Origin: a virus
Lineage: Duplodnaviria; Caudoviricetes
IMG/VR virus record: IMGVR_UViG_3300024252_000005
Reading direction: 5' to 3' (one strand)
DNA: 64,000 nucleotides
Shown here: one piece after another, positions 4,601 to 55,218 of the stretch
How the letters are laid out: every line of letters starts with the position of its first letter
Numbering within the stretch: position 1 is the stretch's first letter
The notes under the pieces: model-generated
Database searches by the model: none
Told to the model about the DNA's origin: nothing
The model's input: only the letters and a program-made list of their open reading frames with translations
Translations under genes and position numbers: made by a program

Positions 4601-4618
4601 GAATAATATTAACCTTTA

Positions 4619-4691
4619 AGCTAATGATGGGACTCGAACCCAGAACCTCTTGTTTACAAATCAAGAGCTCTGCCAATTGAGCTACACCAGC
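4619..4691 (-). tRNA. trnT: tRNA-Thr(UGU)
   Basis: GCTGGTG/CATTAGC acceptor, loop TT-TGT-AA, GGTTCGAGTCC; one anticodon-stem mismatch. Confidence 0.9.
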
Positions 4692-4814
4692 ATGTTCTTG
4701 TTTAGATTATATATTTACATATTCATATTGTTAATTTTTTTTGTTCTTATGTAATTAATCTCCTTTTTTATTATTATAATATTAAATTAAACTATTTACA
4801 CATGAGGAAAATGC

Positions 4815-5351
4815 ATGAGAAATAAACCTAATCAAATATCTTGGGATGATGGTAATAGACTATACAGCTTAGAGACTAAAGATATAATACATGTACTTGT
4901 TAGTAATGATGTTCAAGTAAAAAATATCTCTCCAGCTGGTTCATTAAGAAGAAAAAGACATAAAGTTGGAGACTTAGACATTGTAATAGAGGTAGATAAT
5001 CCTAAATTGGCAGGTAAAATACTAGAAGACAAAATGAATTATAATTTTATTGCTAAAAGCTCTTTTTACAAAGGTAAAATTCTTAATACAGGCGTTGACT
5101 TATTTGTTGCAGGCCATCACGATTATTACGCTATGCTATTTTTCTTAACTGGTTGTGAAGATTGGAACTTAAGAATTATGAAATATTTAAAAAACAATAC
5201 TGATATTAGATACACACCATTTCAGTTTATTAATAGTAAAAACAAAAAAGTGTATAAGTTTAACTCAGAAAAAGAAATATTTAAACTAATTAATCATAAT
5301 TATGTATTACCAGTAAATAGAAAACCTAACTACGTAAAATTTGGAGATTAA
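4815..5351 (+). CDS. polX: minimal X-family DNA polymerase (PolX palm + C-terminal domain)
   Basis: AGSLRR..VGDLDIV, GVDLF, LFFLTGC..WN, SEKEIF..YVLPVNR; 178 aa. Confidence 0.85.
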   Translation: MRNKPNQISWDDGNRLYSLETKDIIHVLVSNDVQVKNISPAGSLRRKRHKVGDLDIVIEVDNPKLAGKILEDKMNYNFIAKSSFYKGKILNTGVDLFVAGHHDYYAMLFFLTGCEDWNLRIMKYLKNNTDIRYTPFQFINSKNKKVYKFNSEKEIFKLINHNYVLPVNRKPNYVKFGD

Positions 5352-7541: not shown

Positions 7542-7759
7542 TCTTCAAATGCGATTTTGATATCATTATAAGGATCATTTGTATTTGCATAAAACAATGC
7601 TAGTTTACCTTTGTCGTTCAATAAACGAAAAACGCACTTACAATAGAAGCCATTCTCAACTTCTTTATGTATAACCAAATGAACATTGTTGTTTTTGCCT
7701 TTCTCATAGTTCATTCCTGTAATTTCTACTAAGTCACCAACTTTTATTTGGCCATACAT
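7538..7759 (-). CDS. small hypothetical (KOW/SH3-like) protein
   Basis: MYGQIKVGDLVEI start at 7759. Confidence 0.5.
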   Translation of the reverse strand: MYGQIKVGDLVEITGMNYEKGKNNNVHLVIHKEVENGFYCKCVFRLLNDKGKLALFYANTNDPYNDIKIAFED

Positions 7760-7849
7760 GAAATAAAAACTCGATATACTTTTGAAATTAAATTTATGTG
7801 AATCATAGAATGATAATAGCAAAAAGTATTCTAAGAAGGAAATTTATTA

Positions 7850-7999
7850 ATGAAAAATAATAATGTATTGCAAAGATATATTGAAAATATTCTATTAGAA
7901 ATAGCATCAATTGGAAAACAATCTAACTTTAAGCTAGAAGAAGAAATAGAAAGTCTTGAAAGAAGACTAATTCATATGCAAACGCATGAGAATTATTAG
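7850..7999 (+). CDS. 49-aa peptide with leader-like LQRYIENILLE
   Basis: AAGGA SD, hand-translated ORF. Confidence 0.45.
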   Translation: MKNNNVLQRYIENILLEIASIGKQSNFKLEEEIESLERRLIHMQTHENY

Positions 8000-8003
8000 T
8001 TAA

Positions 8004-8024
8004 CACACTAGACAGGACTTGAAC
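8004..8024 (-). other. orphan tRNA T-loop/acceptor fragment
   Basis: GTTCAAGTCCTGTCTAGTGTG directly after the split-tRNA 3' half. Confidence 0.45.
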
Positions 8025-8063
8025 ACGCCTATCTGGACTCGAACCAGAACTCTTGGGCTTAAG
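8024..8063 (-). pseudogene. 3' half of split tRNA (partner at 9058-9091)
   Basis: CTTAA-GCCCA-AGAGT-TCTGG-TTCGAGT-CCAGA-TAGGCGT-G; TAGGCGT pairs 7/7 with GCGCTTA at 9091. Confidence 0.75.
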
Positions 8064-8150
8064 CACCTCCTGGAGGATTCGAACCTCGCACTCTCCAATT
8101 CCCCTATATTAATGAGACCGGCTTAGAAGGCCAGTGGGGATGCAGAAGGC
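8064..8150 (-). tRNA. atypical tRNA-Arg(UCU)-like element with rearranged D-arm
   Basis: Acceptor GCCTTCT/AGGAGGT, arm CTGGC-CTTCTAA-GCCGG, GGTTCGAATCC; no canonical D-arm; 23-nt insert after the anticodon arm. Confidence 0.55.
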
Positions 8151-8226
8151 ATATAACAATATTATTATTTTTTTGTTTATTGTTAAATTATTTTTGCATT
8201 AACATTGATCTAAGCATATTTATTAT

Positions 8227-9057
8227 ATGTTCAAGTTGAGGATAAATATGTATTGCAATAAATGTGAAAAAGAGATACCCAAAAAAGAAGCTGGTAATCA
8301 TAAAAGATGGTGTGGAAATAAAAAAACTATTAAAGATTCTTACTGTAAGATATGTAATTCTCCAATAAAAAACACAAGAACAAACTCAGTTAGAAAATAC
8401 TGTGCTAGAGAATGTTTTAACAAAGGAGTATATACTAAAGAGTTTAAACAAAAAATATCTAATAGCAGAAAAAAATATCTTAAGGAAAACCCTAACAGTC
8501 ATCCTTGGTGTAAAGAAAACAAATTTAAGTCTGCGCTAAAGAAGTTTCTTAAGGAAAATAATATAGACTTCATTGAAGAGCACCAGCCTCTGAAAGATAG
8601 ATTTTTCTCTATTGATATTGCCATACCAGAAGTTATGTTTGGAATAGAAGTAAATGGTGAGCAACATTATAATAGGGATAAAACTCTTAAGAAATATTAT
8701 CAAGAAAGACATAATTTAATTAAAGCACAAGGTTGGGTGATATATGAGATTCACTACTCTAAAGTTTATGACGATATTTTTTTATCGAGTTTAATTGAAA
8801 GAATAAGAAAAAATAATTTTAATAACTTTACAATAGACTTTGAGTTACGTAAAAACAAAGTTAAAAGAAGAAAAAATGTAAAGGAAGTCTCTCTAAAGCA
8901 TAAAGAAGAAAAAGCTAAAAAGTTGCTTGAAACAAGATTAGAACATATTAGTAAGGCTGAAAAGAATTGGGGTTGGATTTCCAAAGCTTCTCGAGATCTA
9001 GATATAAGTCATACTCATGTAAGAAGGCTCGTAAACAAGTATCTTTCTGATGCGTAA
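8227..9057 (+). CDS. free-standing homing-type endonuclease, Vsr/DUF559 (EDxHD-like) with Zn-finger, NUMOD3-like and HTH modules
   Basis: CNKC/CKIC/YCAREC, KQKISNSRKKYLKENP, IDIAIP..GIEVNGEQHY..RHNLIKAQGW.I; likely start ATG 8248. Confidence 0.75.
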   Translation: MFKLRINMYCNKCEKEIPKKEAGNHKRWCGNKKTIKDSYCKICNSPIKNTRTNSVRKYCARECFNKGVYTKEFKQKISNSRKKYLKENPNSHPWCKENKFKSALKKFLKENNIDFIEEHQPLKDRFFSIDIAIPEVMFGIEVNGEQHYNRDKTLKKYYQERHNLIKAQGWVIYEIHYSKVYDDIFLSSLIERIRKNNFNNFTIDFELRKNKVKRRKNVKEVSLKHKEEKAKKLLETRLEHISKAEKNWGWISKASRDLDISHTHVRRLVNKYLSDA

Positions 9058-9091
9058 AGGCCCCTGCTTTATCCTATTAAGCTATAAGCGC
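9058..9091 (-). pseudogene. 5' half of split tRNA (ends at U33)
   Basis: GCGCTTA-TA-GCTT-AATAGGATA-AAGC-A-GGGGC-CT; abuts the endonuclease stop codon. Confidence 0.75.
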
Positions 9092-9095
9092 TGAA

Positions 9096-9141
9096 TAGAT
9101 CTTTAATCAGAATTACTATTATTCTTTATATTAAAGATCTA
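9096..9141. repeat. 12-bp inverted repeat spacer between tRNA elements
   Basis: TAGATCTTTAAT ... ATTAAAGATCTA. Confidence 0.7.
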
Positions 9142-9143
9142 AA

Positions 9144-9216
9144 TGGGCACCCTGGGATTTGAACCCAGAATCGACGCTTTATGAGAGCGCTGCCTTAACC
9201 CTTTGGCCAGATGCCC
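9144..9216 (-). tRNA. tRNA with CAU anticodon (Ile2 or elongator Met)
   Basis: GGGCATC/GGTGCCC acceptor, GCGCT-CTCATAA-AGCGT, GGTTCAAATCC; lacks initiator hallmarks. Confidence 0.9.
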
Positions 9217-9256
9217 ATATAAGACCTTTTTGCTCTAACTACTGGGCTATAGGCCC
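9217..9256 (-). pseudogene. orphan tRNA 5' half (Ile2/Met-like) fused to the CAU tRNA
   Basis: GGGCCTATAGCCCAGTAGTTAGAGCAAAAAGGTCTTATAT immediately before +1 of the intact tRNA. Confidence 0.6.
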
Positions 9257-20131: not shown

Positions 20132-21187
20132 TCAGAAGATATCATCATTCAAATCATCATCAACACTAACGAAGTCTTCATAAACATTCTGAAGATTCTC
20201 TGGATCTAAACGATCTAACACAACTTCAGAATCGTCAACAACCTCTTCAGAAACTAGCACGTCGATTTCATCTCCAGCTGCTGATACTTCATCCTTTACA
20301 ACAACCTCAAACTTCAAAGATCTAGGCGTCCCACCCATAGATCTGATTGTCTCATCAAGAAGCTCAACGGGAATCAAGTGAAGCTGCTTAGGATGATCAG
20401 ATGTAGATCCACCAGTTCGAACCTCAAATGCTGCTGATTGCTTGCCATCTTCTGATACACGAGCTCCAGAATAACGGATCCAAGCTCCTCCCTGCATCTC
20501 AATTAGCGTCTTATAATCATCACAATCGACACCTTCTGATTCGAGCTGAGCAATAGTAGGATTAATCTCAGATAACGCAACTATCACCCACTTTGCTCCC
20601 TTCCCAGAAAAACGAGCCTTAAGCTTAGATCTCCAATCAGATCCATCAGCTGCCTTTCCAGACCTATGACACAAAGCCTTAACATTATCATTAATCAATG
20701 TATTAAGATGCATCTTAAAAGCTGTTACCTTAGGATCTCCACCCTCAGCCAAAAAACTCTTAAACATGCTCACAATCATATCTTGCTGAGACATAACTTC
20801 CTCATTATTATTTAGATTATCAACAGTAAAGCCAGAATCATTATCTGCCATAGAAATCTCCTCATTTGAACTAGGGGCTGAAATAGTTAAGTTGTCCATT
20901 TGATCCTCCAAAGGATTGATTGTTTGTGCCTGATGGTTTATTATATCAATGTCTTTATCTAAGTTGCACGCCTCATTAATCACCTCCCAGTTATTAACTA
21001 ACCAACCATACTCATCACTCAAAGCATCAGTAATCTGAAATTCGTCTGTGTTCTCAGGATCTTCAAAGTAATCGCTGAGATTAACTTCAAGAGGAATACC
21101 ATTATCAAAAGCAAACTTATCATGCTCTTCATCATAATAATCTACTGTAGTAGGCAAATCAAATTCCCATTGTATTTTAATCTTCAT
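20132..21187 (-). CDS. read-through fusion of family D domain and family C protein (family C also has its own promoter, SD and ATG at 20899)
   Basis: N-terminus matches 28037 and 29912; C-terminal part matches 30335 and 34022; promoter copy inside at 20931-20970. Confidence 0.8.
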   Translation of the reverse strand: MKIKIQWEFDLPTTVDYYDEEHDKFAFDNGIPLEVNLSDYFEDPENTDEFQITDALSDEYGWLVNNWEVINEACNLDKDIDIINHQAQTINPLEDQMDNLTISAPSSNEEISMADNDSGFTVDNLNNNEEVMSQQDMIVSMFKSFLAEGGDPKVTAFKMHLNTLINDNVKALCHRSGKAADGSDWRSKLKARFSGKGAKWVIVALSEINPTIAQLESEGVDCDDYKTLIEMQGGAWIRYSGARVSEDGKQSAAFEVRTGGSTSDHPKQLHLIPVELLDETIRSMGGTPRSLKFEVVVKDEVSAAGDEIDVLVSEEVVDDSEVVLDRLDPENLQNVYEDFVSVDDDLNDDIF

Positions 21188-28036: not shown

Positions 28037-28252
28037 TCACTCTGTATCTAGACTGTACCAATCATTGACCAACCAGCCATGCTCATCGCTCAGCGCGTCT
28101 GTAACTTGGAAAAGTGTAACTGTGCTCATGTCTTCGAAGTAATCAGATAGATCAACTTCGAGTGGCACTCCGTTAGCATTAGCAAATTGATCATGCTCTT
28201 CAGGTGTATGATTGGAAGGTAAGTCGAAGTCCCATTGGATTTGAATGATCAT
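28037..28252 (-). CDS. small acidic protein, paralog family D
   Basis: IQWDFDLP..GVPLEVDLSDYFED..QVTDALSDEHGWLVN. Confidence 0.75.
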   Translation of the reverse strand: MIIQIQWDFDLPSNHTPEEHDQFANANGVPLEVDLSDYFEDMSTVTLFQVTDALSDEHGWLVNDWYSLDTE

Positions 28253-30334: not shown

Positions 30335-31141
30335 TTAAAAGATGTCGTCGTTGAGCTCATCGTCGGAGTTATCTTCAAGATCTGGATCTGCAAGACCTTC
30401 GGCTGCTAGAAATGCTTCCCATTCCTCAGGGTTGTCTGATGTTGGAGCTTCGTTTAGTTCTTCAAAAGGATCAGAATCTGTTTCTTTTACGTTAGGTCCA
30501 ATGACAACGTCAGCACGAGTTACAGCGCTTTTTTCCTTAGGCTCAGGCTTAACATCTTCAGGCTTAACATCTTCAGATTCAGCTTTTGCTGAGCTACTGG
30601 ACTCAAGGCCGAGAGCATGAGGGGTTTTATTCATTGGGCGAATTGCCTCATCAAGGACATCAATTGCGATATAGTGAAGTTGCTTAGTATGATCAAGTTT
30701 AGACCCACCAGTTCTGACTTCAAAAGCTGCACAGTTTTTCCCATTTGAGACTCGAGGTGCAGAAAATCTGATCCAAGCAGCACCTTTAGCTTCAGTGTTA
30801 GTTATGTAATCACTGCAATCAATGCCTTGAGATTGAAGTTCAGTTATAGTCAGACTGATCTCTTGAAGAGAAACGAAAACCCATTTAGCACCGGTGCCAG
30901 AAAACTTTGCTTTGACATCGCGTCGCCAAACTGCTTCGCCTTCTCCGGTCTTGCCTGATCTTGTTGTTAGATGCTTGATGTGACTGTCAATCAGTTCGTT
31001 AAGATGCTTCTTGAAGCCAGTTACGGAAGCTTTGTGTCCTTCAGCAATGAAGTTATCAAAAAGACCGCGGATCATTTCGTCGTCGTACTTATTCATTTCA
31101 GTTCCTTGACTGTTTGATTGTGGGAGAGAATTGTTATTCAT
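30335..31141 (-). CDS. family C protein with acidic tail ending NDDIF
   Basis: VTGFKKH..SGK..KFSGTGAKWV..AWIRFS..AAFEVRTGGS; internal EDVKP x2. Confidence 0.8.
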   Translation of the reverse strand: MNNNSLPQSNSQGTEMNKYDDEMIRGLFDNFIAEGHKASVTGFKKHLNELIDSHIKHLTTRSGKTGEGEAVWRRDVKAKFSGTGAKWVFVSLQEISLTITELQSQGIDCSDYITNTEAKGAAWIRFSAPRVSNGKNCAAFEVRTGGSKLDHTKQLHYIAIDVLDEAIRPMNKTPHALGLESSSSAKAESEDVKPEDVKPEPKEKSAVTRADVVIGPNVKETDSDPFEELNEAPTSDNPEEWEAFLAAEGLADPDLEDNSDDELNDDIF

Positions 31142-34021: not shown

Positions 34022-34801
34022 TCAGAAGATGTCATCGTTGAGGTCGTCGTCGTAGTCATCCTCGAACTCGTCGTTACTGAGGCCTTGTGATGAGAGGTAA
34101 GCTTCCCAAGCTTCAGGATCATCAGAGTCAGGGACATCACTCGGAGTCTCGTCGTCTGGTGTCTCCACCTCGTCAACGACTTCAGTTGTCTCGGTCTCCT
34201 CAGCTTCAGGCTCTTTGGCTTCGCTCGGTGAGGCAATGACCTCGAGCTTCTCTGAGTGGGGAGTTCCTCCTAATGGAGAGATCACATCGTCAAGTCCAAC
34301 AGCAGGTAAGATAAGCAACTGCCTTTGATGATCATCTTTGGATCCACTTGTTCGAACTTCGAAGGCTGCCATATGAGCCTTGCTTTTAGGGTCGACGCGA
34401 GGTCCTGAGTAGCGAACCCATGCGTAGCCAGCTTGCGTCGTCCATGCCTTGTAGGCTGAGCAATCGATGCCATCCTCCTCGAACTCGTCAAGACTTGGGT
34501 TAACGACGTCAAGGGCAACTTGAACCCACTTCGCTCCGCGACCAGCAAACATTGCCTTCTGCTCACGACGCCAATCGGAGCCAGATCCATTGGCAGTCTT
34601 GCCAGATCCTGAGCAAAGGTGCTTGATGTCAGTCTTGATGAGACCATCAATATGCTTCTTGAAAGCAGTTACCTTAGGATCGCCTCCAGCTGCAATAAAC
34701 TGCTCGAACAAAGCTTTAATATGATTAACTTCTGTCATTGTATCCTCAATTGTTGGGTTTGATGTTGGGATGTTTTGGGTAGATTGAGTATCAGTTGTCA
34801 A
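34022..34801 (-). CDS. family C protein with acidic tail ending NDDIF
   Basis: GGDPKVTAFKKH..GAKWV..AWVRYSG..AAFEVRTSGS; TTG start with AGGAG. Confidence 0.8.
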   Translation of the reverse strand: MTTDTQSTQNIPTSNPTIEDTMTEVNHIKALFEQFIAAGGDPKVTAFKKHIDGLIKTDIKHLCSGSGKTANGSGSDWRREQKAMFAGRGAKWVQVALDVVNPSLDEFEEDGIDCSAYKAWTTQAGYAWVRYSGPRVDPKSKAHMAAFEVRTSGSKDDHQRQLLILPAVGLDDVISPLGGTPHSEKLEVIASPSEAKEPEAEETETTEVVDEVETPDDETPSDVPDSDDPEAWEAYLSSQGLSNDEFEDDYDDDLNDDIF

Positions 34802-35195
34802 AATGACTCCTAAATGGTTGGGGTGATGTTTTATTATAATAGGATTAGATTAATGTTACACGATAGATGATGGACCTGTTGTTTCCTTAATAATTAACTT
34901 TGATTCATATTTAACTCCTTTCCTCTAGTACTTTTTATTATACCATCTGTCTCAATTAGTTACACGATCCAACTCGACGACCCGAAGGGCTGTCAACGCA
35001 AGTTCTCGAGATCAATGATGATCGATGCAGCTAAGAAGAGAATAATCAAGGTAAGCATATGATGCCTTTCAACTTAAGGCTCTAACATGAGGACGAAGGC
35101 CTCGTTTTTGCCTGACCTGTTATTATATAACCTTCAGGCGATAGTTACACGATTAATACGCCGGACGCCAGAGTTCTCACATCATCACCAAGAAA

Positions 35196-35500
35196 CGTGT
35201 AACTTGGTAATTCAACTGACCGGGAAACCAACGATGTCAAAGATCTGAAGGGAAGAGGCATGCCTCTTTTGGAACCACCGTTCCTATCCCCCCTTATGTT
35301 CTTATTATAATATGCCACGTCGCCGGTTACACGTAGGCCCCGGGGCTCTAGAGGGCCCCTTTTAGGCCCCCTCTGCGTGTATCTAAAACTCAGTGGGACT
35401 CCGGCCCAGGGGGGGTTTAGTCCGCTACCAGCATTTTCTTCCCGGGAACTTTTCGAAAAGCTTTTAGGTATCACATTTGAATACATCTAATTTGTGAAAA
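35196..35500. other. GC-rich palindrome cluster at the divergent transcription junction
   Basis: AAGAGGCATGCCTCTT (35253-35268), CCCCGGGG, CTCTAGAG, TTCCCGGGAA (35439-35448), CTTTTCGAAAAG (35449-35460); inverted promoter half-site at 35196. Confidence 0.7.
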
Positions 35501-35584
35501 AAACTCCAGGAGACTTTTTTAATAACTTTTTGATATTTAGAGATATATTTATATTTAGTTATATTAATAGAAAGAGTTTTAAAT

Positions 35585-36280
35585 ATGAGAATAACTGAGA
35601 GTAAATTACGAAGTTTGATAAGGAGTGTGATTAAAGAAACATTTGATCACGTAGGAAAATTTGCCGCAATGTATATGATGCCTAAAAGAGGAATATCATC
35701 AAGAGATATTAAAAACTTATGTCCTTCTAGAGAATGTGAATTTATATCTGTTGGAAATGTTGACAGTTATGATAGTTATAGACCTTTTGAAGATGATCAT
35801 GGTTTTTTCATAGATGCTTTTGAAAATTGTGTTAATCAAATTGACATAGGCGAAGGAAACGAAGAAGCTGAACGTGTTGTTAGTAGTTCTGGTTTTGTTA
35901 GTAGTATTATGCCTTTAAAAGTTTTTTATGATTCTAATGATGGTGGTCGTTTAGTATACTGTACAAAAGGTACCTTTAATACATCAGAGGGTGAAGGAAA
36001 TGTTTGGTTTAGTTTACCTATAGATACGCAAAAGTTTGAAAGAAGATGTAATAATGAGTTTGGTCAAATCAATTCATCAGGAGTTGAATATGAATCAATG
36101 ATTCATTCTAGAGAAAGAGAAGAGCAGGCAAAAAGAAGAGATAGATTAGATCGAGAATTTGGTCGAGGAGTCTATGCTAATCCTTACTCAGGAGAGACAG
36201 AAGCAGAAACTAGAGCAAGACTTCGAAGAGATGATACTGAGCGTGATCATCTAAGAAAAATTAGAAAAGAAATGCTTTAG
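35585..36280 (+). CDS. leader-family protein (putative internal virion protein)
   Basis: MRITESKLRSLIRSVIKE. Confidence 0.75.
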   Translation: MRITESKLRSLIRSVIKETFDHVGKFAAMYMMPKRGISSRDIKNLCPSRECEFISVGNVDSYDSYRPFEDDHGFFIDAFENCVNQIDIGEGNEEAERVVSSSGFVSSIMPLKVFYDSNDGGRLVYCTKGTFNTSEGEGNVWFSLPIDTQKFERRCNNEFGQINSSGVEYESMIHSREREEQAKRRDRLDREFGRGVYANPYSGETEAETRARLRRDDTERDHLRKIRKEML

Positions 36281-36411
36281 TATTTGCAAATAATTTAATT
36301 CTTGTCGAGCTGGGTGTCTCCTGAGTCATGACGTTTATGTGAGTTAAATATTTTATATTGACATGATTAAACATATGTAGTTGTGTTGAAATATTTAACA
36401 GGGATAACATT

Positions 36412-36915
36412 ATGAATCGAAAAGAAACAAAATTATTGGTTGAAGGTTGGAGAAATCTATTAAAAGAGACGCGTGAGACTGCAATAGCTAGTGATGTTGA
36501 AGTGGTATTTCCTGATGGCATACCGGAAGACTTGTTAATGAAGGGAGATTCTGATGGTGAGATAAGTGGTTTTGTTTATCCTCATGATGTGAGTAGAGCT
36601 CGAGGGGGAATATATTGGAGAGGTGACTTAGTTGGGTTTATGACGCCTAGAGAAGAGAAAGGCGGGTGGAGAGTTGGAGCTGTTTATATTGATAGTGAAG
36701 CGAGAGAGAGAGTCAAGGGTATAGGGAGTATAGCGATATCGAAGTTTTTCGAGTGTAGAGAAGCTGCTGATTTGCTTATTGGAGTCGATAATATTTCTTC
36801 GCAGAGAGCGTTTAGTAATGCTGGATTTGAAGATACAGGAAAGAAGTATGTTGATAAAAGTGATGGTTGGGAAGCGACTGTGTGGAGTAGGGTGTCTCTA
36901 GAGTCACAGACGTAA
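36412..36915 (+). CDS. GNAT-family acetyltransferase with variant leader
   Basis: VGAVYID..RVKGIGS, IGVDNISSQRAFSNAGFE; N-terminus KLLVEGWRNLLKE. Confidence 0.75.
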   Translation: MNRKETKLLVEGWRNLLKETRETAIASDVEVVFPDGIPEDLLMKGDSDGEISGFVYPHDVSRARGGIYWRGDLVGFMTPREEKGGWRVGAVYIDSEARERVKGIGSIAISKFFECREAADLLIGVDNISSQRAFSNAGFEDTGKKYVDKSDGWEATVWSRVSLESQT

Positions 36916-37051
36916 CAGAATAGTTTTGAGTTTGTTAAACTGTTTTGCTGAATTTGTGAAAAAAACTTCGGGAGAAATTTCGGAAAACTTTTTGTATGTT
37001 TAGTAATAAATAGAGTTATACAATATTGTTAAACAAAGAGAGGCTTAAGGA

Positions 37052-37153
37052 ATGAAAATAACTGAGAGAAGATTGAGAAGTCTTATAAGACAAGTGGTGG
37101 TTACAACACGCCCGGGAATCCTGACGATTATTGATCTTATTGTTAATTTATAG
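37052..37153 (+). pseudogene. orphan leader (MKITERRLRSLIRQVV) without cargo
   Basis: 33-codon ORF with AAGGA SD; overlapping out-of-frame tail GGYNTPGNPDDY*. Confidence 0.6.
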
Positions 37154-37255
37154 AGCTGGGTGCCTCCTGAGTCACGACGTTTATGCTTGTTAAATGTTTT
37201 ATATTGATTTGATTGTATATATATAGTTATGCTATAAGTTTAAGCAGGAGACAAT

Positions 37256-37657
37256 ATGAGAATATCTGAAAGAAGATTAAGATGCATGATAAGAGAAATT
37301 ATTATTGAGAGTGGAGAGGTTGATCCTTGGGTAAAAATCCAGAGAGACAATATAAATAAAGCAAATAGAAATATAGAGTCTCAGTATACTGTTGATGATG
37401 ATGAGACGGTCTTGGGCGTAGGATTATATGACTATGCTATTAGAGTTTTAGATAGATGTTCAAGCTTAGACTATACTAGGACATTTGTTGATGATGATTC
37501 AATGTTTTTGAAAGAGCCAATACAGATTGGAAAATCTTATAGAGACTTAGTTGATATTAGAGATGTTTTGAATAATTGTTTTAAAAATAGCATGTCTATA
37601 AGAGACTGTGCTGATGATTGTATTTTAAAATGGAAGAATATTAATAATATTAATTAA
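37256..37657 (+). CDS. leader-family protein
   Basis: MRISERRLRCMIREIIIE. Confidence 0.75.
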   Translation: MRISERRLRCMIREIIIESGEVDPWVKIQRDNINKANRNIESQYTVDDDETVLGVGLYDYAIRVLDRCSSLDYTRTFVDDDSMFLKEPIQIGKSYRDLVDIRDVLNNCFKNSMSIRDCADDCILKWKNINNIN

Positions 37658-37670
37658 GTAGAGATAAAAT

Positions 37671-38468
37671 ATGTTGTTAAGAGAATATGTTTCGCGATAT
37701 ATTAAAGAAGCTATATCATATAGCTTGTTAAATTTAGTTTCAACAGAGTTGAATAATATAACGAAAAATTATAAAGTTTCGAATAATAATCATCATATAT
37801 ATTATGATTTAGTTAAAGTTGTTGACAAGTTTGGTCTTAAGCCTATAGGCGCTGGAGTTTATCGTCATGTATATTCTATACCAGAAGAGGATTGGGTTTT
37901 AAAGTTTTCTTATGAAGGTAGTGGAGGCGAGTGGGCAAATGCTGAAGAGGTTGCAATTAGTGTTGGAAGTCACGGAATAGGAGCGCGAGATTTATTTGTT
38001 AAGATATTTGAATGGGACAAGATAAGTGAAAATCCAGAATGGATTATTGCAGAAAAAGTGATAACATTATCAGCAGCTGGAAGATCAATGTCATTTTCAG
38101 TCTTAAAGAAAATATTTCCTACTTTTTGGGATGCGTTATATAATGATGCAAACGAAAAAACTTCTGTCAGCTTTTTCTGTGATTTTGTTGCTGATACTTT
38201 GCGTGAGCTTAGTATAGAATCTGAGCCAGAGCAAAATGCTAGCGGCTTAAATGCTGAAGCATTTTATATTGCAATGAAGGAAGCAGCAATCTCAGAATTA
38301 AACATCATGCCTTTTGAAGCAATTAGATTTAGTGAAGATTTTTATATAATTGCTAGAGCATGTGCATATAGCAGGCCAGATGACATGCATAGCGGTAATA
38401 TTGGAATAATACCTTCAAGCCAACCTAGCCCAAAAGACATTGTTATTCTTGATTATCTAATATCTTGA
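37671..38468 (+). CDS. protein-kinase-like (ePK/APH fold) with variant leader
   Basis: IGAGVYRHVY, VLKF, NAEE, DDMHSGNIG, ILDY. Confidence 0.75.
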   Translation: MLLREYVSRYIKEAISYSLLNLVSTELNNITKNYKVSNNNHHIYYDLVKVVDKFGLKPIGAGVYRHVYSIPEEDWVLKFSYEGSGGEWANAEEVAISVGSHGIGARDLFVKIFEWDKISENPEWIIAEKVITLSAAGRSMSFSVLKKIFPTFWDALYNDANEKTSVSFFCDFVADTLRELSIESEPEQNASGLNAEAFYIAMKEAAISELNIMPFEAIRFSEDFYIIARACAYSRPDDMHSGNIGIIPSSQPSPKDIVILDYLIS

Positions 38469-38508
38469 AACATATATAGATATATTGAAAGATTAAACAG
38501 GAGTTAGT

Positions 38509-39804
38509 ATGTACATGACAGAGTGTAGACTGAGACAGATTATAAGAAGCGTTTTGATTGAAAACAGAAAGAATAGTATTTTAAAAGAAAGTAATGGATT
38601 AAAAAAAAGCATCCATGTTGATATGTTTACTACTTTTTGTGAACTAACTTTTTATCTTAAGAATGCTTTGCTTAATGAAGATGCTTCTCACAGTGTGTTT
38701 TTTTTTATTGCAAGTAAAATTTTAAGAAAAACTCATGAACCTATTTATATTAATGAAAACTTTATATCAAAGTCTAAAGAATTTTTAAAAGCAATTGGTG
38801 AAGTATTTTCAGTATATAAAAACAGTCTAGATGATGACTTACTTGATGAAAAAAATATTAATGTTTCAAATTATTTAGACGAAAATTATTCTTTTAGAAG
38901 TGATAGTAGAATAGCTTTGGAGAAATATTTTAGTTTAGTTTTGTATTTGAAAAGCAATGCAAATTTTCAAAAGTGCCTAAACGTTTTAAAAAAAAGGTTA
39001 AAGTCTATATCTATTTTTGATGAGTTTAATATTAACAATGTCAAAGGAAAACAATTAATCAATACAGCAACAGAGTTTTTAAATTACTTTTCTAAAGTAA
39101 ACAAGCTTTTAGATAAAAATAAAAAAGATTTCCCTTCAGAAGGAAGAACAAATATTGTCAAAGTTTTAAAAGTCATAGACAGATATTTAGAGAAATTACC
39201 AAAGAGCGTTGACATAGAAGCTCAAGAAATATTTGAAAAAGGTTTTATATTACAACGAAAATGGATGATTTTTACTAAAACCATAGAATCAGAAGATAAA
39301 GTGATTTATACAGAGCAGCCTTTTGATTTGAGTAGGATTTCTAGCATAGCGCTGAAGCAAGGATTAAAACCTGATGGTGTTTGGTATTCTTTTGGTAATG
39401 ATTGGGATGATTTCTGTCAGCAAAATAGATTTAATACTAATAAATATAATTTCAAGTATCTTATAGAAGTTGATGAATCTAAAATTTTTACAATTAGTGA
39501 TGAAAGTGATCTTAAGCAATTTGAAAGCTTATATTATATTGAACCTGATGAGATTGGTTTAGATTATATTGATTGGGGAAAAGTTGAAAATGACGGGTAT
39601 TCTGGTTTTCAAATAAAAAACTGGGATACTTTAATGTATAAAGCAATAAAAAATATGCAAACAGGACAAAACTGGCTATCAAAATATGATATTAGTTCTG
39701 GATGTATATGGAATAAAAATGTCGTAATAGATTTTCATGATTTGAGCTATAAATATACACCTGCTATTTTTGCACGTAACAAGCAAAAATTAGAAAATCT
39801 ATAG
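38509..39804 (+). CDS. leader-family protein with Trp-rich C-terminal domain
   Basis: MTECRLRQIIRSVLIE; KPDGVWYSFGNDW..IDWGKV..GCIWN. Confidence 0.7.
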   Translation: MYMTECRLRQIIRSVLIENRKNSILKESNGLKKSIHVDMFTTFCELTFYLKNALLNEDASHSVFFFIASKILRKTHEPIYINENFISKSKEFLKAIGEVFSVYKNSLDDDLLDEKNINVSNYLDENYSFRSDSRIALEKYFSLVLYLKSNANFQKCLNVLKKRLKSISIFDEFNINNVKGKQLINTATEFLNYFSKVNKLLDKNKKDFPSEGRTNIVKVLKVIDRYLEKLPKSVDIEAQEIFEKGFILQRKWMIFTKTIESEDKVIYTEQPFDLSRISSIALKQGLKPDGVWYSFGNDWDDFCQQNRFNTNKYNFKYLIEVDESKIFTISDESDLKQFESLYYIEPDEIGLDYIDWGKVENDGYSGFQIKNWDTLMYKAIKNMQTGQNWLSKYDISSGCIWNKNVVIDFHDLSYKYTPAIFARNKQKLENL

Positions 39805-39881
39805 TTTAAAAAATAATTGAAGAAATAGGCGGTTGTGAAGCGTGGATAGATAAATTGTATTAAAGATATTTTTAAATAATG

Positions 39882-40832
39882 TGTTGATAAATATATAATA
39901 GATAAAAGGAGTTTATTTATGCGTATTACTGAAAGGAAACTAAGAAATATTATAAAAAGTATTATTTGTGAAAAAAGGAGTAATAAGAAATTAAATGTTG
40001 AAATTGATAGACGAATACTAAAACAAGTAGAATATATGTTTGAATATAATTATTCTATTTTTGTAGAAGACAAAGAAAACCAATTAATTGTAGCTATGCA
40101 TAAGATGGATAGAGTTCGTAAAAGCCAAGAAGAACGTAAATTAAATACAATTGGAAGATTTAAAAGAAAGCCTGGCAAAAAAGTTGGTTCTGTTATTTTT
40201 GATAAATACACCAGAAAAGAAGGTAAAGTAATTCCTTTAGGGGTTAAAGTTGGTGGTAGTAAAAGAAAAGGTGTTTGGTGCGTTGGTTTATCAGAGCTTA
40301 AAAATCATGATGAATTAGGTTTAGGGCCTATCATGTATGAAGTTGGTATAGAGTATATAAGTAGGCATAAAAACTGTGCTGTTGGTGCTCATTTTAATGG
40401 TGGTTCATCTAAACATGCTTTTAGAGTCTGGGAAAAATTTGACAACAGAGAAGACTTTGAAAAATATCAATTTGATATAGATTTAGATTACGAAGACTTT
40501 AAGGGTAACAAGAGAGAGGAAAATAATTTAACAAAAAATATTTCTCAAATAACACCTGAAGATGATAGTGATGATATTGGATTTGGTTTGAACAACTTAA
40601 ATTACACTTTGAATTTAAAAAAGTCTGAATTTGTAAAAAGTTGGTTTAAATCACCTTTGACAAGAGGTTTTTTTAACAATAAAGGTAGAGTTATTAAGCT
40701 GTTACATTCTAAAGATTTAATATTTAAATGTTGACATTAATTAAGTATAGATAGATTATGTTGATAAATATATAATAGATAAAAGGAGTTTATTTATGCG
40801 TATTACTGAAAAGAAACTAAGAAATATCATAA
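39882..40832 (+). repeat. 74-bp near-identical promoter/SD/leader repeat (39882-39955 and 40759-40832)
   Basis: TGTTGATAAATATATAATAGATAAAAGGAGTTTATTTATGCGTATTACTGAAA(G/A)GAAACTAAGAAATAT(T/C)ATAA. Confidence 0.9.
39919..40734 (+). CDS. leader-family protein, possible divergent GNAT fold
   Basis: MRITERKLRNIIKSIICE; LGLGPIMYEVGIEY..SSKHAFRVWEKF. Confidence 0.65.
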   Translation: MRITERKLRNIIKSIICEKRSNKKLNVEIDRRILKQVEYMFEYNYSIFVEDKENQLIVAMHKMDRVRKSQEERKLNTIGRFKRKPGKKVGSVIFDKYTRKEGKVIPLGVKVGGSKRKGVWCVGLSELKNHDELGLGPIMYEVGIEYISRHKNCAVGAHFNGGSSKHAFRVWEKFDNREDFEKYQFDIDLDYEDFKGNKREENNLTKNISQITPEDDSDDIGFGLNNLNYTLNLKKSEFVKSWFKSPLTRGFFNNKGRVIKLLHSKDLIFKC

Positions 40833-41536
40833 GATATGTTTTGGCTGAAGCTGTTGTGCGACCAAAAGCTAGAGTAGATCATAAATTTATGTTCGATCAA
40901 TGGTTGCACACTGTATTTTTAGGTGTTGAAGATAATTTTAGACCTTACGTCAAAGCTGTATATAAGACAAAATCAAAGCAAGACAGGCTTTTAGCGAGAT
41001 GGATGCTGCTTAAGAGTAAAAAGAATCAAACTAACGAACCATTAGAAGTATTTTATGAATATATTAGCAATAGAGTAGAAAACAATGGAGATCTTTTTAA
41101 AAAAGAAATGCTAGGTGACTTTTTCATGGATAATGATGTTAATCCTTATGATATATTTTATTATTTGAAATATTTTATTAAACCTAAAAAAGATTTTAGC
41201 AAATTCAATAAAAATAAAATTCCTTCATCTACTGCTTCTTCTAAAGATTTTGCTATTGAAATTGATGTATTGGGTTGGGATATGTTAAAGTCAGTTAGAG
41301 AAAAGTACGGAAATGAAAGACTTGATCTTAATAATTTACAAGATAAAACTCATATTGACAATGATATGTATAATGATGATAGTGATGAAGTGCTCAAGAG
41401 ATTTTGCAAATTAATTGGAATTGACTTTAATGACAAAAGAGCACTAGCAAACTACTTTTCAGATCAAGCTGCTTCTTCAGGCGTTGATAGCTGGGGAAAT
41501 AGATTACCTAAAATAGATACTTACGAAGAACAATAA
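40796..41536 (+). CDS. leader-family protein
   Basis: MRITEKKLRNIIRYVLAE. Confidence 0.75.
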   Translation: MRITEKKLRNIIRYVLAEAVVRPKARVDHKFMFDQWLHTVFLGVEDNFRPYVKAVYKTKSKQDRLLARWMLLKSKKNQTNEPLEVFYEYISNRVENNGDLFKKEMLGDFFMDNDVNPYDIFYYLKYFIKPKKDFSKFNKNKIPSSTASSKDFAIEIDVLGWDMLKSVREKYGNERLDLNNLQDKTHIDNDMYNDDSDEVLKRFCKLIGIDFNDKRALANYFSDQAASSGVDSWGNRLPKIDTYEEQ

Positions 41537-41550
41537 AAAGGATACTAAAT

Positions 41551-41931
41551 ATGAGAATTACAGAGAAAAAATTAAGAAAGCTAATAAGAGAAACAATAGA
41601 GTCAACAATGAGGGAGTCAGATTATGACGAGTATAGCTCAGACCCTAGATTTAGAGATTTTGGAGATTCTGCAGCTATTGGGAGTGAAGATGACGAGCTA
41701 GAAGATAATGACATGTACGCTGAAGAACACTACATGTCTGACATGGAATCTTCTGATTTAAATTCATCTGGTACTTCTGGAATAGTACCAGATGACCTAG
41801 ATGATTGGAGAAATACAGATTCATACAGGGGTTTAGATGATGAAGAATTACAACCAGATGATTATAATCTAGATTTAATTGAAGACCCTATGTATATGGA
41901 TGCAGAAGATACTGATTATTTTGAAAACTAA
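41551..41931 (+). CDS. leader-family, extremely acidic protein
   Basis: MRITEKKLRKLIRETIE then a D/E-rich body. Confidence 0.75.
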   Translation: MRITEKKLRKLIRETIESTMRESDYDEYSSDPRFRDFGDSAAIGSEDDELEDNDMYAEEHYMSDMESSDLNSSGTSGIVPDDLDDWRNTDSYRGLDDEELQPDDYNLDLIEDPMYMDAEDTDYFEN

Positions 41932-42107: not shown

Positions 42108-42350
42108 ATGAAAAAGTTTTATATATTATTGATAGTTTTGTTTTCTTTTACAATTAATTGTGATGACAAAAATAACAACGAAGATAAAAAGTCTTCTGAG
42201 TGTCAAAAAATAATAGAAAAAGTTGAAGATTGCATGAATTTACACAGAGGAGCATTTAGTTATATTAATTCATGTGGAAAAGTAGAAATAAATGAAGTTA
42301 ACAGACTAAATTCATGTGATCAGTTATTAGAATATATTCTTGGCAAGTAA
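42108..42350 (+). CDS. putative Cys-rich lipoprotein
   Basis: MKKFYILLIVLFSFTINC; four further Cys. Confidence 0.65.
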   Translation: MKKFYILLIVLFSFTINCDDKNNNEDKKSSECQKIIEKVEDCMNLHRGAFSYINSCGKVEINEVNRLNSCDQLLEYILGK

Positions 42351-42352
42351 AG

Positions 42353-43120
42353 TTACCAACTAAAAATTATTCCACCTTTCAGCATAAAGTCTGTATTTTC
42401 TACTTTTTCTGACGGTACTGTGTCGTACAAATAAGTAATAGCTGTATCTATTCCTAGACTATATTCACTTCTATTAACAATAGAAGATCTAAGTTTAATC
42501 TCGCTATTAATTCTATAGTCACTATGATTAAACAATAAGGGCTGATAGTAAGTTACAACAGAGACAAAACTGGAATCATTTTCATTGAAATATTTTGTTA
42601 AAGTAAAATAAGAAGTTATTCTTGAGTGTGTTGTTGTTTCATAAGATAATTGCTCATGATCTGACATTATGCCTAAACCTGAAGATATTTGGAAAAGATT
42701 ATTGTTTTGTAGAGGCTTTTCAAATCTTATACCGACACCATTGAGTTGTCTTAAGCTTAAGTCTCTAAATTCATTATACTGAGTTTGAGTAAATATTTCA
42801 TATCCTAAAAATTCATGCAACATAATAGTATATCTAAAGTGGACAAAAGCGTTATTCTTGTAAATCTCTTTGTCTTGAAATCCTTTGCTTGCTGAACCCT
42901 TTAGCAAGATATGATTTTTGTTTAATTTATAGTGTAAGTCTTTTTTAATTTCGTATACTTGAGAATTAACATTGCCTTTTTGAAATTGAATATTTACTTT
43001 AAACTCTCCGTAAAAGCCTGTTTTAGTTGCTGAGTTCCTAAAAGATTCAATGTTTACTTGCGCAAACAAAGTATTGCAAGAAAGCAATACTATTATTAAT
43101 GTTGATATTATGCTTTTCAT
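42353..43120 (-). CDS. DUF481-like outer-membrane beta-barrel protein
   Basis: Signal peptide ..LFA/QVNIE, alternating amphipathic strands, C-terminal GGIIFSW beta-signal. Confidence 0.7.
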   Translation of the reverse strand: MKSIISTLIIVLLSCNTLFAQVNIESFRNSATKTGFYGEFKVNIQFQKGNVNSQVYEIKKDLHYKLNKNHILLKGSASKGFQDKEIYKNNAFVHFRYTIMLHEFLGYEIFTQTQYNEFRDLSLRQLNGVGIRFEKPLQNNNLFQISSGLGIMSDHEQLSYETTTHSRITSYFTLTKYFNENDSSFVSVVTYYQPLLFNHSDYRINSEIKLRSSIVNRSEYSLGIDTAITYLYDTVPSEKVENTDFMLKGGIIFSW

Positions 43121-44591: not shown

Positions 44592-44894
44592 ATGAAAGTA
44601 AAAGATAATTTATATATAATACAGTCTGATTTAACTGGAATGATAAAAATAGGTAGATCTAAAGATCCAGCGAAAAGATTAAAACAGCTTCAAACTGGTA
44701 ATCCTAATAAACTAAAATTGATCGCTTGTTTTGAAGGTGAAGGATGGAAAGAAAAAATATTACATGAAAGATTAGAAAAGTTTAGATTGCAAGGCGAATG
44801 GTTTAGTTATAGTTGCGTAGGAAGTATACCTGATAGTATTTATGAAAAAATAAATTGGGGATCTTTTGATAATTGGTGGGAAAGTAATATTTAG
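44592..44894 (+). CDS. GIY-YIG/T5orf172-domain protein
   Basis: LYIIQ..IKIGRSKDP.KRLKQLQTGNP..EKILH..GEWF. Confidence 0.85.
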   Translation: MKVKDNLYIIQSDLTGMIKIGRSKDPAKRLKQLQTGNPNKLKLIACFEGEGWKEKILHERLEKFRLQGEWFSYSCVGSIPDSIYEKINWGSFDNWWESNI

Positions 44895-53365: not shown

Positions 53366-53587
53366 ATGAGTATTGAAGAAACACTAATCGAAGAAGATAC
53401 TACTCTACCCACTCCTGATTCTGTAGAGGCTTATTATGGTAGGCTAAGACTGTTAGTTGAGTCAATGGAATCTGACGCTTTGAAGTCAAACAAAGGTAAC
53501 AAAGCTGCTGGAATTAGATTGAGAAAAGGTCTTCGTCACCTAAAAGGTTTTTCAGGGGACTTTGTTAAGTTTACATTGCAAAAGTAG
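53366..53587 (+). CDS. Hc1 (histone H1-like) family N-terminal-domain protein
   Basis: LVESMESDALKSNKGNKAAGIRLRKGLRHLK. Confidence 0.75.
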   Translation: MSIEETLIEEDTTLPTPDSVEAYYGRLRLLVESMESDALKSNKGNKAAGIRLRKGLRHLKGFSGDFVKFTLQK

Positions 53588-53819
53588 CTTTTTTTCTTAT
53601 CTTAGCTATTGATTGTTTTTCTATTTGACACACTCTCATTCTAGTAATACCAAATAGATTACCAACTTCCTGTAGTGTAAAATCTTCTTGCTTTTTGACT
53701 TTGTTTAGAATGCAATTAGATGAATCATTTAAATCGTGCCAAAATCTGCACGATTTATTTTGGCACGATTTGTTATTCTCTTCGTGAGCAGCAAAGCATG
53801 CTAATTTATTTGTTGACAT
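53571..53819 (-). CDS. stand-alone sigma70 region-4 HTH protein with Cys-rich N-terminus
   Basis: FTLQEVGNLFGITRMRVCQIEKQSIAKIR; C..C..C..C. Confidence 0.8.
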   Translation of the reverse strand: MSTNKLACFAAHEENNKSCQNKSCRFWHDLNDSSNCILNKVKKQEDFTLQEVGNLFGITRMRVCQIEKQSIAKIRKKATFAM

Positions 53820-53886
53820 ATTTTTAACCTTTCTAAATTGAAAAATATTTATATATTATCTTAGAATCATTTGAAAGGTTTTATAA

Positions 53887-55218
53887 ATGATACCAAATAA
53901 AAGCAAAAAACTTTTTATTGTCGATACGAGCGTTTTATTGTATGATAAAAATTGTATCAATAATTTAAAAAACAATGATATAGTAATCCCTATGATTGTT
54001 TTAGAAGAGCTTGATAAGTTTAAGTCAAGAGAAGGAATATTGGGCGAGAACTCTAGATATTTCAATAGATTTCTAGATGAAGCAAGGGCACATGGAAACT
54101 TACAGAAAGGTATTTACATAAAAGAGACAAATGCTTCAATAAAAGTTGAGGCAAATCAGAGCTGGGATAAAATAGAAGTTCTAGATAGAAGCCTTAATGA
54201 TAATATTATTATGTCTAATGTAAATTATTTGCAAAACAATTTTTCAGAACAATATTCAGATATTATTCTTATAACAAAAGATATCAATCTTAGAGTTAAA
54301 TGTGATGCAGCAAATATTGCAGCCAATGATTATTACGCTGATTATGAATTTATTGAAGAAGATAATTTATTCAAAGGCATGGCTAGCGTAGACTCTTCTC
54401 TTGATGTTATAAACGGTCTATACTCTAATAAAGTAATTAGAATAGAAAAACTAGAAATGCAGTCTTCTGATCTTTGTGAAAACGAGTGTCTTGTAGTAAA
54501 GTCAAATGAAAGCATTTCGTCTTCAGCGCTATGCATAAAGAAAAGAGATCATTTAAAGCTAGTACTTAGCAAAAGTGAAATACAGAAAAAGACTGGGATT
54601 GAGCCAAAAAACAAAGAGCAGATATTTGCTTTGAATTTATTACTAGACAAAGATATATCACTTGTTACTCTTACAGGTGTTCCTGGCAGTGGTAAAACTT
54701 ATTTGACTTTGATGACAGCTTTGAAAGAAATTGAAAAAGAAACTAAAAAAAGAATAATATTTACAAGGCCTATACAGACTGTGGGCAAAGATATTGGTTT
54801 TCTTCCAGGAACACTTAATGAAAAAATGGCACCATGGTTAGCACCTATTGTTGACAACTTCAGAAATCAGTTTGGTGATCTGTCTTATTTTGACATAATG
54901 ATAGAAAAAGGATTGATAGATGTAGCACCTTTATCTTACATAAGAGGAAGAAGCTTTAATGATGCTATAATTATAGTTGATGAAGCGCAGAATGCTACTG
55001 TCCATGAGTTAAAGACTGTTATTACAAGAACAGGAAGAAATTCAAAAATAATACTATTAGGCGATATTGAACAAGTAGATCTGCCATATGTAAATAAGTA
55101 TTCAAATGGTTTGACTATTGTTGCTGAAAAATTAAAAAACGAGACTTTAACTGGTCATGTTAACTTTGAAAAAGGTTACAGATCAGATCTTGCAAATATT
55201 GCAGCATTAAAGCTGTAG
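53887..55218 (+). CDS. phoH: PIN-PhoH protein (PhoH2/YlaK-like)
   Basis: VDTSVLL PIN, LITKDINLR, GVPGSGKT, YIRGRS, DEAQN, LLGDIEQVD. Confidence 0.92.
   Translation: MIPNKSKKLFIVDTSVLLYDKNCINNLKNNDIVIPMIVLEELDKFKSREGILGENSRYFNRFLDEARAHGNLQKGIYIKETNASIKVEANQSWDKIEVLDRSLNDNIIMSNVNYLQNNFSEQYSDIILITKDINLRVKCDAANIAANDYYADYEFIEEDNLFKGMASVDSSLDVINGLYSNKVIRIEKLEMQSSDLCENECLVVKSNESISSSALCIKKRDHLKLVLSKSEIQKKTGIEPKNKEQIFALNLLLDKDISLVTLTGVPGSGKTYLTLMTALKEIEKETKKRIIFTRPIQTVGKDIGFLPGTLNEKMAPWLAPIVDNFRNQFGDLSYFDIMIEKGLIDVAPLSYIRGRSFNDAIIIVDEAQNATVHELKTVITRTGRNSKIILLGDIEQVDLPYVNKYSNGLTIVAEKLKNETLTGHVNFEKGYRSDLANIAALKL

Follow-up and report, generated by a model that had tools for sequence, protein, structure and literature searches.

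The internal proteins of T-even phages are diverse, and common to them is only a capsid targeting sequence (CTS; PMC3012670, PMC9026906). Among the T4 head cargo is an enzyme, the ADP-ribosyltransferase Alt (PMC9026906, PMC3012670). The T4 protease gp21 cleaves after L/I-x-E, and targeting propeptides in T4 have 10–19 residues (PMC9026906). Many head-loaded proteins of the giant phages phiKZ, 201phi2-1 and SPN3US are likewise trimmed after Glu by a gp21-related protease (PMC5694885). Here we analyse a 64,000-nucleotide stretch of phage DNA from seawater (IMG/VR record IMGVR_UViG_3300024252_000005; hereafter the window), in which nine consecutive + strand genes at 35585–41931 encode proteins with related N-terminal leaders. 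We propose that this shared N-terminus is probably a T4-style capsid-targeting propeptide system, a reading drawn from sequence comparison and from analogy with T4. The CTS concept is already established in T-even phages, and delivery of proteins with a CTS-type tag was demonstrated with T4 in the 1990s. What sets the present case apart is the sequence of the tag, its at least three exchangeable flavours, the compact array, the kinase-like and GNAT-like cargo and the uncultured marine setting.

The array resembles the T4 system in several ways. In both, a short N-terminal propeptide, carried in T4 by IPI, IPII, IPIII and Alt and removed by gp21, stands on otherwise unrelated proteins and ends in hydrophobic-x-Glu. 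The cargo is diverse and strain-variable in both and includes enzymes, and a relative of the window (G007, below) encodes a T4-like S77 protease, scaffold and gp23 capsid protein. There are also clear differences. Whereas the T4 CTS has 10 residues (MKTYQEFIAE), the array leader has 18, is strongly basic and is unrelated in sequence. It comes in at least three interchangeable flavours, and seven to nine tagged genes lie in one tandem array. No T4 head cargo is known to have the folds predicted here, kinase-like and GNAT, and phage and host are uncultured and marine, the array system being known from sequence alone. The propeptides of phiKZ, 201phi2-1 and SPN3US differ in another direction, since they are mostly >100 residues long with an S/A-x-E motif and no short shared tag; the present lineage has instead a T4-type gp23 capsid protein and an L/I/V-x-E motif.

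Seven of the nine array genes start with what we call the type-A leader, an 18-residue pattern M-[RK]-I-[TS]-E-x-[RK]-L-R-x-x-I-[RK]-x-x-[IVL]-x-E. The two remaining genes (36412 and 37671) have N-termini that are different from type A but related. A leader profile built from 18 leaders, all from other contigs, scores the seven type-A open reading frames (ORFs) of the window at 24–38 bits, and the next-best candidate N-terminus in the window scores <4 bits (internal starts of the same ORFs set aside). The sharing of the leader is far beyond chance. A preliminary description of this locus had listed seven ORFs with a common leader and had suggested a search with a leader profile; the translations and the external profile bear the list out. 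All seven ORFs exist on the + strand, with three amendments. The gene listed at 38515 more likely starts at 38509, since MYMTE is there in register with MRITE, AGGAG lies 8 nt upstream and relatives have MYITE or MYILE; the ORF at 37052 is a stub; and the leader of 41551 lacks the usual site at 16–18. The bodies had been said to share nothing, and pairwise BLASTP indeed detects no similarity between them (best E 0.026 in a nine-sequence database). An (I/L)xE ending had been claimed for six of the seven leaders; we find [ILV]-x-E at positions 16–18 in five of seven, 37052 having no terminal Glu and 41551 a shifted motif, and in nine of nine leaders from IMG/VR.

It is the peptide, not the DNA or RNA, that selection keeps, since synonymous choice in the leader codons is close to random. 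Codon pairs that specify the same residue use the same codon in 105 of 189 cases, against 78 expected under random choice with the codon usage of the window, and the leader arginines are encoded by AGA, CGT, CGA and AGG. The 54 leader bases have a mean nucleotide identity of 64%, which falls to 40% immediately before them and to 30% downstream. Moreover, the leader peptide is kept in contigs of 29–40% G+C with differing codons.

The leader is widespread among relatives of this phage. Syntenic contigs from Tara and other ocean assemblies have their own arrays of leader genes. IMG/VR was scanned with a degenerate IUPAC DNA pattern covering only the first 13 leader residues; all nine contigs recovered continue x-[VI]-[IL]-x-E, a feature absent from the query pattern, and their bodies are again different. 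The gene at 40796–41536 (+ strand; 246 residues, type-A leader, 37 bits) illustrates how the leader is inherited. Six of the eight homologues shown (P0002–P0004 and P0006–P0008) keep a type-A leader with L-x-E followed by A or V, the leader of P0009 is degenerate and P0005 starts after the leader. In the 40796 and 39919 families, most orthologues retain the leader, its identity being about that of the body, or higher than it in the more distant ones. Searches of 50,697 phage records with the array DNA (blastn) or the acidic 126-residue protein (tblastn) gave no match, the IMG/VR related-loci search with the 40796 protein found no relatives and a literature search on leader strings found no paper.

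Structure prediction suggests that two of the cargo proteins are enzymes of different folds. The gene at 37671–38468 (+ strand) encodes a 265-residue protein with a type-C leader, MLLREYVSRYIKE followed by A. Its AlphaFold2 model (pLDDT 89) has a helix at residues 2–11 and pLDDT <50 at residues 8–13, after which the body begins. The top PDB matches in Foldseek are all APH or eukaryotic-type protein kinases (E ~1e-3), and an ESM Atlas lead points to a phage T7-kinase-like cluster (0.98; Pfam family on 17% of members). Among 31 homologues, G62, K78, E93, D238 and D261 are invariant and N243 is nearly so, positions that correspond to the Gly-rich loop, the Lys–Glu pair, the catalytic Asp/Asn and the metal-binding Asp. 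On the model and this conservation together, the predicted body has a protein-kinase-like bilobal fold. The second protein, 271 residues with a type-A leader, is encoded at 39919–40734 (+ strand) by a gene missing in some natural variants. Its model (pLDDT 72) shows a leader helix at residues 5–17 and a linker at 18–25 with pLDDT <50. Nearly all of its top 50 PDB matches in Foldseek are GNAT-fold acetyltransferases or acetyl-CoA-binding domains, with a best E of 4.6e-3 and TM at most 0.5; Pfam gave no match, and ESM Atlas, as a lead only, gave Acetyltransf_1 clusters (0.96; family on 14–15% of members). Both AlphaFold2 models thus show the leader as a helix of its own, and the low-confidence stretch that comes after it coincides exactly with the predicted cut site. 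Pfam and PHROGs searches with the cargo bodies of the array gave nothing useful.

The same cargo can carry different leaders. The 37671 protein has 64 representatives in a large library, of which the 31 aligned have a type-C leader in most cases; P0158 and P0169 have type A instead, and P0155 and P0156 have type B. Leaders of all flavours align on a nearly invariant Glu with a hydrophobic residue two positions before it. In the 39919 family, too, P0135 bears a different leader. Since homologues of the kinase-like cargo bear any of three flavours, each ending at hydrophobic-x-Glu, the tag is by sequence comparison a swappable module. The type-B leader is represented in the window by MNRKETKLLVEGWRNLLKE on a 167-residue protein (36412–36915, + strand) and recurs on four genes of G007 as well as on the kinase homologues P0155 and P0156. 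The preliminary description had counted the N-termini of 36412 and 37671, with those of 5352 and 7850, as looser versions of the leader; the first two hold as types B and C, and the latter two are not statistically established. A further flavour, MIKLKDLLTE or MAKLKDLLGEA, heads several small proteins at 171–1230 and 3851–4537 of contig L011 (G001), from a far-T4 marine phage. Because MIKLKDLLTE-type and type-A leaders share this contig, several tag families coexist in one phage.

The link between the leader and a T4-type head comes from relatives. G007 is a 95-kb IMG/VR contig colinear with the window, its helicase 70% and its PIN-PhoH protein 67% identical and their spacing the same, and it has leader genes of types A, B and C upstream of the helicase. 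About 70 kb downstream lies a head module encoding terminase, portal, S77 protease, a long acidic scaffold-like protein and a Gp23-type major capsid protein (MCP). The protease (L032:9252–9854) matches Peptidase S77 (PF03420, E 6e-31, 103 bits against a cut-off of 27), and the capsid protein is of the Gp23 type (PF07068, E 4e-67). The protease motifs GELDHP and GISSRG align with GELNHP and GVSSRG of T4 gp21, their His and Ser being what we take to be the catalytic residues of gp21, and its N-terminus has L-I-T-E where T4 gp21 has L-L-I-E. The T4 gp23 site FLTE/A (the slash marks the cut in T4) aligns with ALRE/N in G007, LISE/A in G001 and IVSE/A in Flavobacterium phage immuto, so that the three far-T4 capsid proteins aligned at the gp23 maturation site keep hydrophobic-x-Glu. 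A search for PF03420 in five leader-bearing IMG/VR fragments, which are only 3–23% complete, gave no match, and nothing in G007 corresponds to the 495-residue structural protein of the window.

The leader motif itself recurs on proteins of the head module. Between protease and scaffold, G007 encodes small proteins whose N-termini are MAKVSRSMLKSIVKECLVELLAE followed by G and, in the other, end in VKITPSTIRRLVKEERARLNE followed by T; both fit the array-leader pattern K/R-hydrophobic-T/S-xxx-L-K/R-x-I-I/V. A metagenome peptide scan found the same two kinds of small protein in four more relatives of 45–51% G+C. In the window and related loci, 20 of 367 proteins have the motif [KR][ILMV][TS]xxx[LIM][KR]x[ILV][ILV] at the N-terminus, among them both small proteins of G007 and their counterparts in the four relatives, and the 71,626 internal residues contain it only once. 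Like T4 gp67 and gp68, which are small, encoded between portal and protease and cleaved by gp21, these are small proteins encoded beside the protease gene, and their N-termini bear the array-leader motif and end in L-x-E. Unlike gp67 and gp68, their genes follow that of the protease; they have no detected homology to the T4 proteins, and it is position only that suggests a core role for them. Pfam searches with the small proteins of the head module found nothing.

In G001, the scaffold-like and Gp23 MCP genes have genes with type-A and related leaders directly upstream of them. The cultured Flavobacterium phage vB_FspM_immuto, whose gene order is gp20–gp21–scaffold–gp23, has a capsid protein 54% identical to that of G001. 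One immuto protein starts MKKSQLRQIIKEAL, and another, whose gene stands between those for portal and protease, starts MKKSQIVKAVQEVLEE. Between the leader genes of G001 and its genes for scaffold and capsid lie three others (L011 5303–8127). By eye, one encodes a 350-residue protein that looks like actin/MreB, one a 516-residue protein with a MKLTKSKLKELIKKE start and one a very basic 83-residue protein that resembles ribosomal protein S21.

From these comparisons we propose the following mechanism, in which docking, cleavage, packaging and ejection are all inferred. The 18-residue basic helix would dock a freshly synthesized protein on the scaffold core while the prohead assembles, and the small core proteins of the phage, with the same motif, would dock likewise. 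Once the shell has closed, the T4-type (S77/gp21) prohead protease would cut after the Glu of the terminal hydrophobic-x-Glu, freeing mature cargo in the head, which would comprise the small acidic proteins, the kinase-like and GNAT-fold enzymes and further proteins. Of this, some at least would probably exit with the DNA at infection. The array would be plastic, its promoter–ribosome-binding site (RBS)–leader repeats allowing cargo genes to be gained, lost and re-tagged by recombination. The preliminary description had put forward a portable tag that ends in a T4 prohead-protease site and loads unrelated effectors into the head for co-injection. The core of that proposal, the portable tag with its protease site on unrelated cargo, is well supported by comparative evidence. 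Support comes from the T4-type head module of the relative, the motif on head proteins, the exchange of flavours and the disordered linker; loading and cleavage stay at the level of inference from such data, and co-injection and an effector role are extrapolated from T4.

A number of observations weigh against capsid targeting. The head-module link is made through a relative at about 70% identity and not through the window's own contig, and in that relative the leader array is about 70 kb from the head genes. Both the presence of tagged proteins in the virion and their cleavage are deductions from sequence. In sequence the leader is dissimilar to MKTYQEFIAE, the T4 CTS, and a 37-kb T4 region that covers genes 20–24 and alt (ipI–ipIII lie outside it) contains no match of ≥7 bits to the leader profile. 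Hydrophobic-x-Glu is a short motif and frequent by chance. The description of the leader as amphipathic holds only to a moderate degree (hydrophobic moment 0.5–0.6; p ~0.07 against shuffles). Finally, the Foldseek E values behind the kinase and GNAT calls are weak (1e-3 to 5e-3), consistent as the top matches are. The propeptides of T4 gp22, gp24 and Alt resemble the leader only in their hydrophobic-x-Glu ends. As judged from these alignments, the leader is an analogue or a very distant relative of the T4 CTS and does not belong to the same sequence family.

The alternative that survives best keeps the tag as a signal that sends proteins to the prohead core and is cut there, and differs in the fate of the cargo, which would consist of core or scaffold accessories that are degraded or expelled like T4 gp67 and gp68. 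It would account for the same motif on two small conserved head-module proteins at the gp67/gp68 position, and 41551 with its counterparts, small leader proteins of very high acidity, recall the acidic core proteins of T4. The kinase-like and GNAT-fold bodies, however, have intact catalytic-type residues and no obvious scaffold role, and the array varies between strains, as expected of host-interaction genes and not of assembly parts. In T4, moreover, Alt, an enzyme, and IPI* are packaged and ejected (PMC9026906). We regard this alternative as unlikely, and the tagged proteins could in part be core components that get degraded.

Less probable again is that the leader is an uncleaved docking helix for a partner other than the capsid, such as a membrane site, nucleic acid, a chaperone of phage or host or a factory for replication or transcription. 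Four features are left unexplained by such a helix: the invariant Glu that ends the leader at a constant spacing, its agreement with the protease site aligned on capsid proteins, the motif on head-module proteins in all relatives examined and the position of leader genes right next to the scaffold and MCP genes of G001. In its favour, a short, basic helix striped with hydrophobic residues is a generic shape for binding protein or nucleic acid, and the array is distant from head genes and beside early-looking genes.

That the genes form one paralogous family, whose bodies diverged past recognition and left the N-terminus as the most conserved part, we consider very improbable. Their tandem arrangement on one strand, their similar size and the upstream DNA common to some of them would fit such an origin, but the predicted folds differ (kinase-like bilobal, GNAT alpha/beta and a disordered acidic protein), one cargo family has three leaders and one leader stands on many unrelated bodies across contigs. 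Least credible of all is a recently duplicated 5' gene end (promoter, RBS and translation-enhancing start) kept for expression: promoter–RBS–leader DNA is indeed repeated for some pairs (D2, below) and recombination does take place in the cassettes, but across the seven leaders the residues are kept with near-random synonymous codons, upstream DNA averages only 40% identity, the peptide persists at 29–40% G+C with other codons and relatives of 45–51% G+C keep a related motif on head-module proteins.

Three families of DNA repeats stand in front of the array genes. A putative promoter–RBS–leader cassette (D2, 39859–39972, + strand) heads the 39919 gene and has a copy at 40736–40849, 82% identical over 114 nt, that heads the 40796 gene. 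A 101-nt intergenic element (D3, 36302–36402, + strand; copy at 37148–37248, 78% identical) precedes genes of different flavour, 36412 and 37256. A 44-nt element with a short palindrome (D4, 35489–35532, + strand; copy at 36951–36994, 82% identical) stands before 35585 and 37052, and a D4-related GAAAACTTTTT...ATAAATAG stretch precedes type-A genes of G007. Contigs from two seawater runs of different studies (X5 and X7) join 39881 to 40759 across a 53-nt identical run that spans the RBS and the first five codons. This natural 877-bp deletion removes exactly the 39919 gene, which is lost by recombination inside the repeated promoter–leader cassette. The ORF at 37052–37153 (+ strand) is a leader-only stub of 33 residues that scores 31.8 bits over leader positions 1–15. 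Because it is so short and its leader ends VVVT, we class it as a cassette remnant and not a cargo gene; it looks like a leftover of cassette recombination. Possible cargo replacements at other cassettes (joints with 30–33-nt sides, runs X4 and X5) were rejected as too short to trust.

T4-type phages are described as having mobile regulatory PeSL cassettes, repeats of promoter and stem-loop that mediate modular gene shuffling (PMC2839356, PMC4122927). As in the cassettes described there, repeated regulatory DNA flanks the variable genes of the present array, and recombination between copies deletes a gene in natural populations. Unlike those cassettes, the array repeat extends into the coding leader, and its promoter or stem-loop function is putative. 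In a scan of the array for sigma-70 promoters and terminators, site counts were not above those of shuffled sequences. The T4 late-promoter word TATAAATA occurs exactly upstream of the G007 terminase, MCP and one leader gene, and at seven of eight bases upstream of several leader genes of the window; the word is not enriched in this AT-rich DNA. Four short exact contigs from an RNA run (X20), in four array genes, were not accepted as a sign of transcription, DNA carry-over being possible. Rfam gave no match over 34–42.5 kb of the window.

Apart from the small acidic protein of 41551, the remaining array proteins have bodies to which no fold could be assigned. The first gene (35585–36280, + strand) encodes 231 residues with the type-A leader MRITESKLRSLIRSVIKE (38 bits with the external profile) and has no Pfam or PHROG match. 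In the type-B protein at 36412, an R-x-x-G-x-G-like motif was spotted by eye only, and a PDB sequence search gave no match. The gene at 37256–37657 (+ strand; 133 residues) has the type-A leader MRISERRLRCMIREIIIE (23.9 bits) and an acidic body of pI 4.5. That at 38509–39804 (+ strand; 431 residues) has the type-A leader MYMTECRLRQIIRSVLIE (31 bits), and its C-terminal 140 residues match phrog_8582 (E 6e-12), a family whose function is not known; an ESM Atlas search gave nothing usable. The last gene (41551–41931, + strand) encodes a very acidic protein of 126 residues, 35% of them D or E, whose type-A leader has I-R-E at 12–14 and M-R-E at 20–22 and not the usual [IL]-x-E at 16–18. Small proteins that likewise combine a leader with an acidic body are also found in L001, L003, L012, L013, L015, L017 and G007. 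Outside the array, translation suggests a possible type-C-like leader (MKLLREHYKELLNEE) on a 729-residue protein (5352–7541, + strand), the membership of which is uncertain and whose N-terminus does not match the type-A profile, and the 49-residue ORF at 7850 has a type-C-like N-terminus.

Among the products of the window, whose G+C content as a whole is about 30%, are tRNAs, large virion proteins, helicases and a PIN-PhoH protein. Genes identical to those of the window are found on metagenome contigs of up to 255,678 bp, and the stretch is present in seawater runs from many studies. Next to the array, relatives keep two genes, for a small lipoprotein-like protein (42108–42350, + strand) and for a DUF481 outer-membrane-type protein with a signal peptide (42353–43120, − strand); PF04338 is recorded for an L007 gene identical to the latter. 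A 100-residue T5orf172/MUG113 (GIY-YIG-like) protein is encoded at 44592–44894, the same position in all relatives examined. The region 53366–55218 encodes a 73-residue Hc1-like (histone-like) protein, an antisense 82-residue protein with a sigma-70 region-4 match and PhoH fused to an N-terminal PIN domain (Pfam matches, including the L021 record). Three − strand tRNA genes (Leu-TAA, Thr-TGT and Met-CAT) lie at 4325–9217.

On the other side of the array, the segment 26000–35500 has 40–44% G+C against about 30% for the genome, has every gene on the − strand and carries the octamer CGTGTAAC. Several of its genes look like paralogues of genes at 14–21 kb; such pairs are 28037–28252 with the start of 20132–21187, and 30335–31141 with 34022–34801. 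The octamer occurs 15 times in 14460–35333, against 0.8 expected (none of 100 shuffles reaches 15). Of these copies, 14 are on the − strand, most of them between the genes called there, and the 780-bp divergent region 34802–35585, which adjoins the leader array, has a cluster of five. The octamer CGTGTAAC is probably a phage-specific promoter or operator of the − strand gene block.

The three flavours invite a further conjecture, that each is an address code of its own, modelled on the N-terminus of another head component. Type A is similar to small core proteins, type B to the beginning of the gp23-type capsid propeptide (LL..W..LL.E, a pattern that T4 gp23 shows as well) and type C to the N-terminus of the scaffold (ending IKE followed by A). 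The likeness of type B to gp23 and of type C to scaffold is a post hoc observation, put forward as a hypothesis only, and we hold the conjecture as a whole to be possible, if rather doubtful.

The lineage to which this phage belongs is uncultured yet very common in seawater, with >8000 protease homologues, a lower bound set by the scoring limit of the search; the best 120 of these >8000 are each ≥90% identical to the query, and contigs reach 240–255 kb. As a capsid-loading tool, the tag adds little in principle beyond T4. A natural series of different tags for one job is nonetheless useful for defining what a capsid-targeting sequence needs, and the array shows cargo-gene exchange via repeated promoter–leader cassettes. 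If the tag works as in T4, the proteins carried into the cell would be predictable from sequence alone, and the predicted cargo enzymes could modify host proteins at the moment of infection. Should the flavours prove to be address codes, cargo would be sorted to different prohead docking sites or copy numbers, and the injected proteome of an abundant uncultured lineage of marine giant phages, protein-kinase-like and acetyltransferase-like enzymes included, would become readable from sequence.

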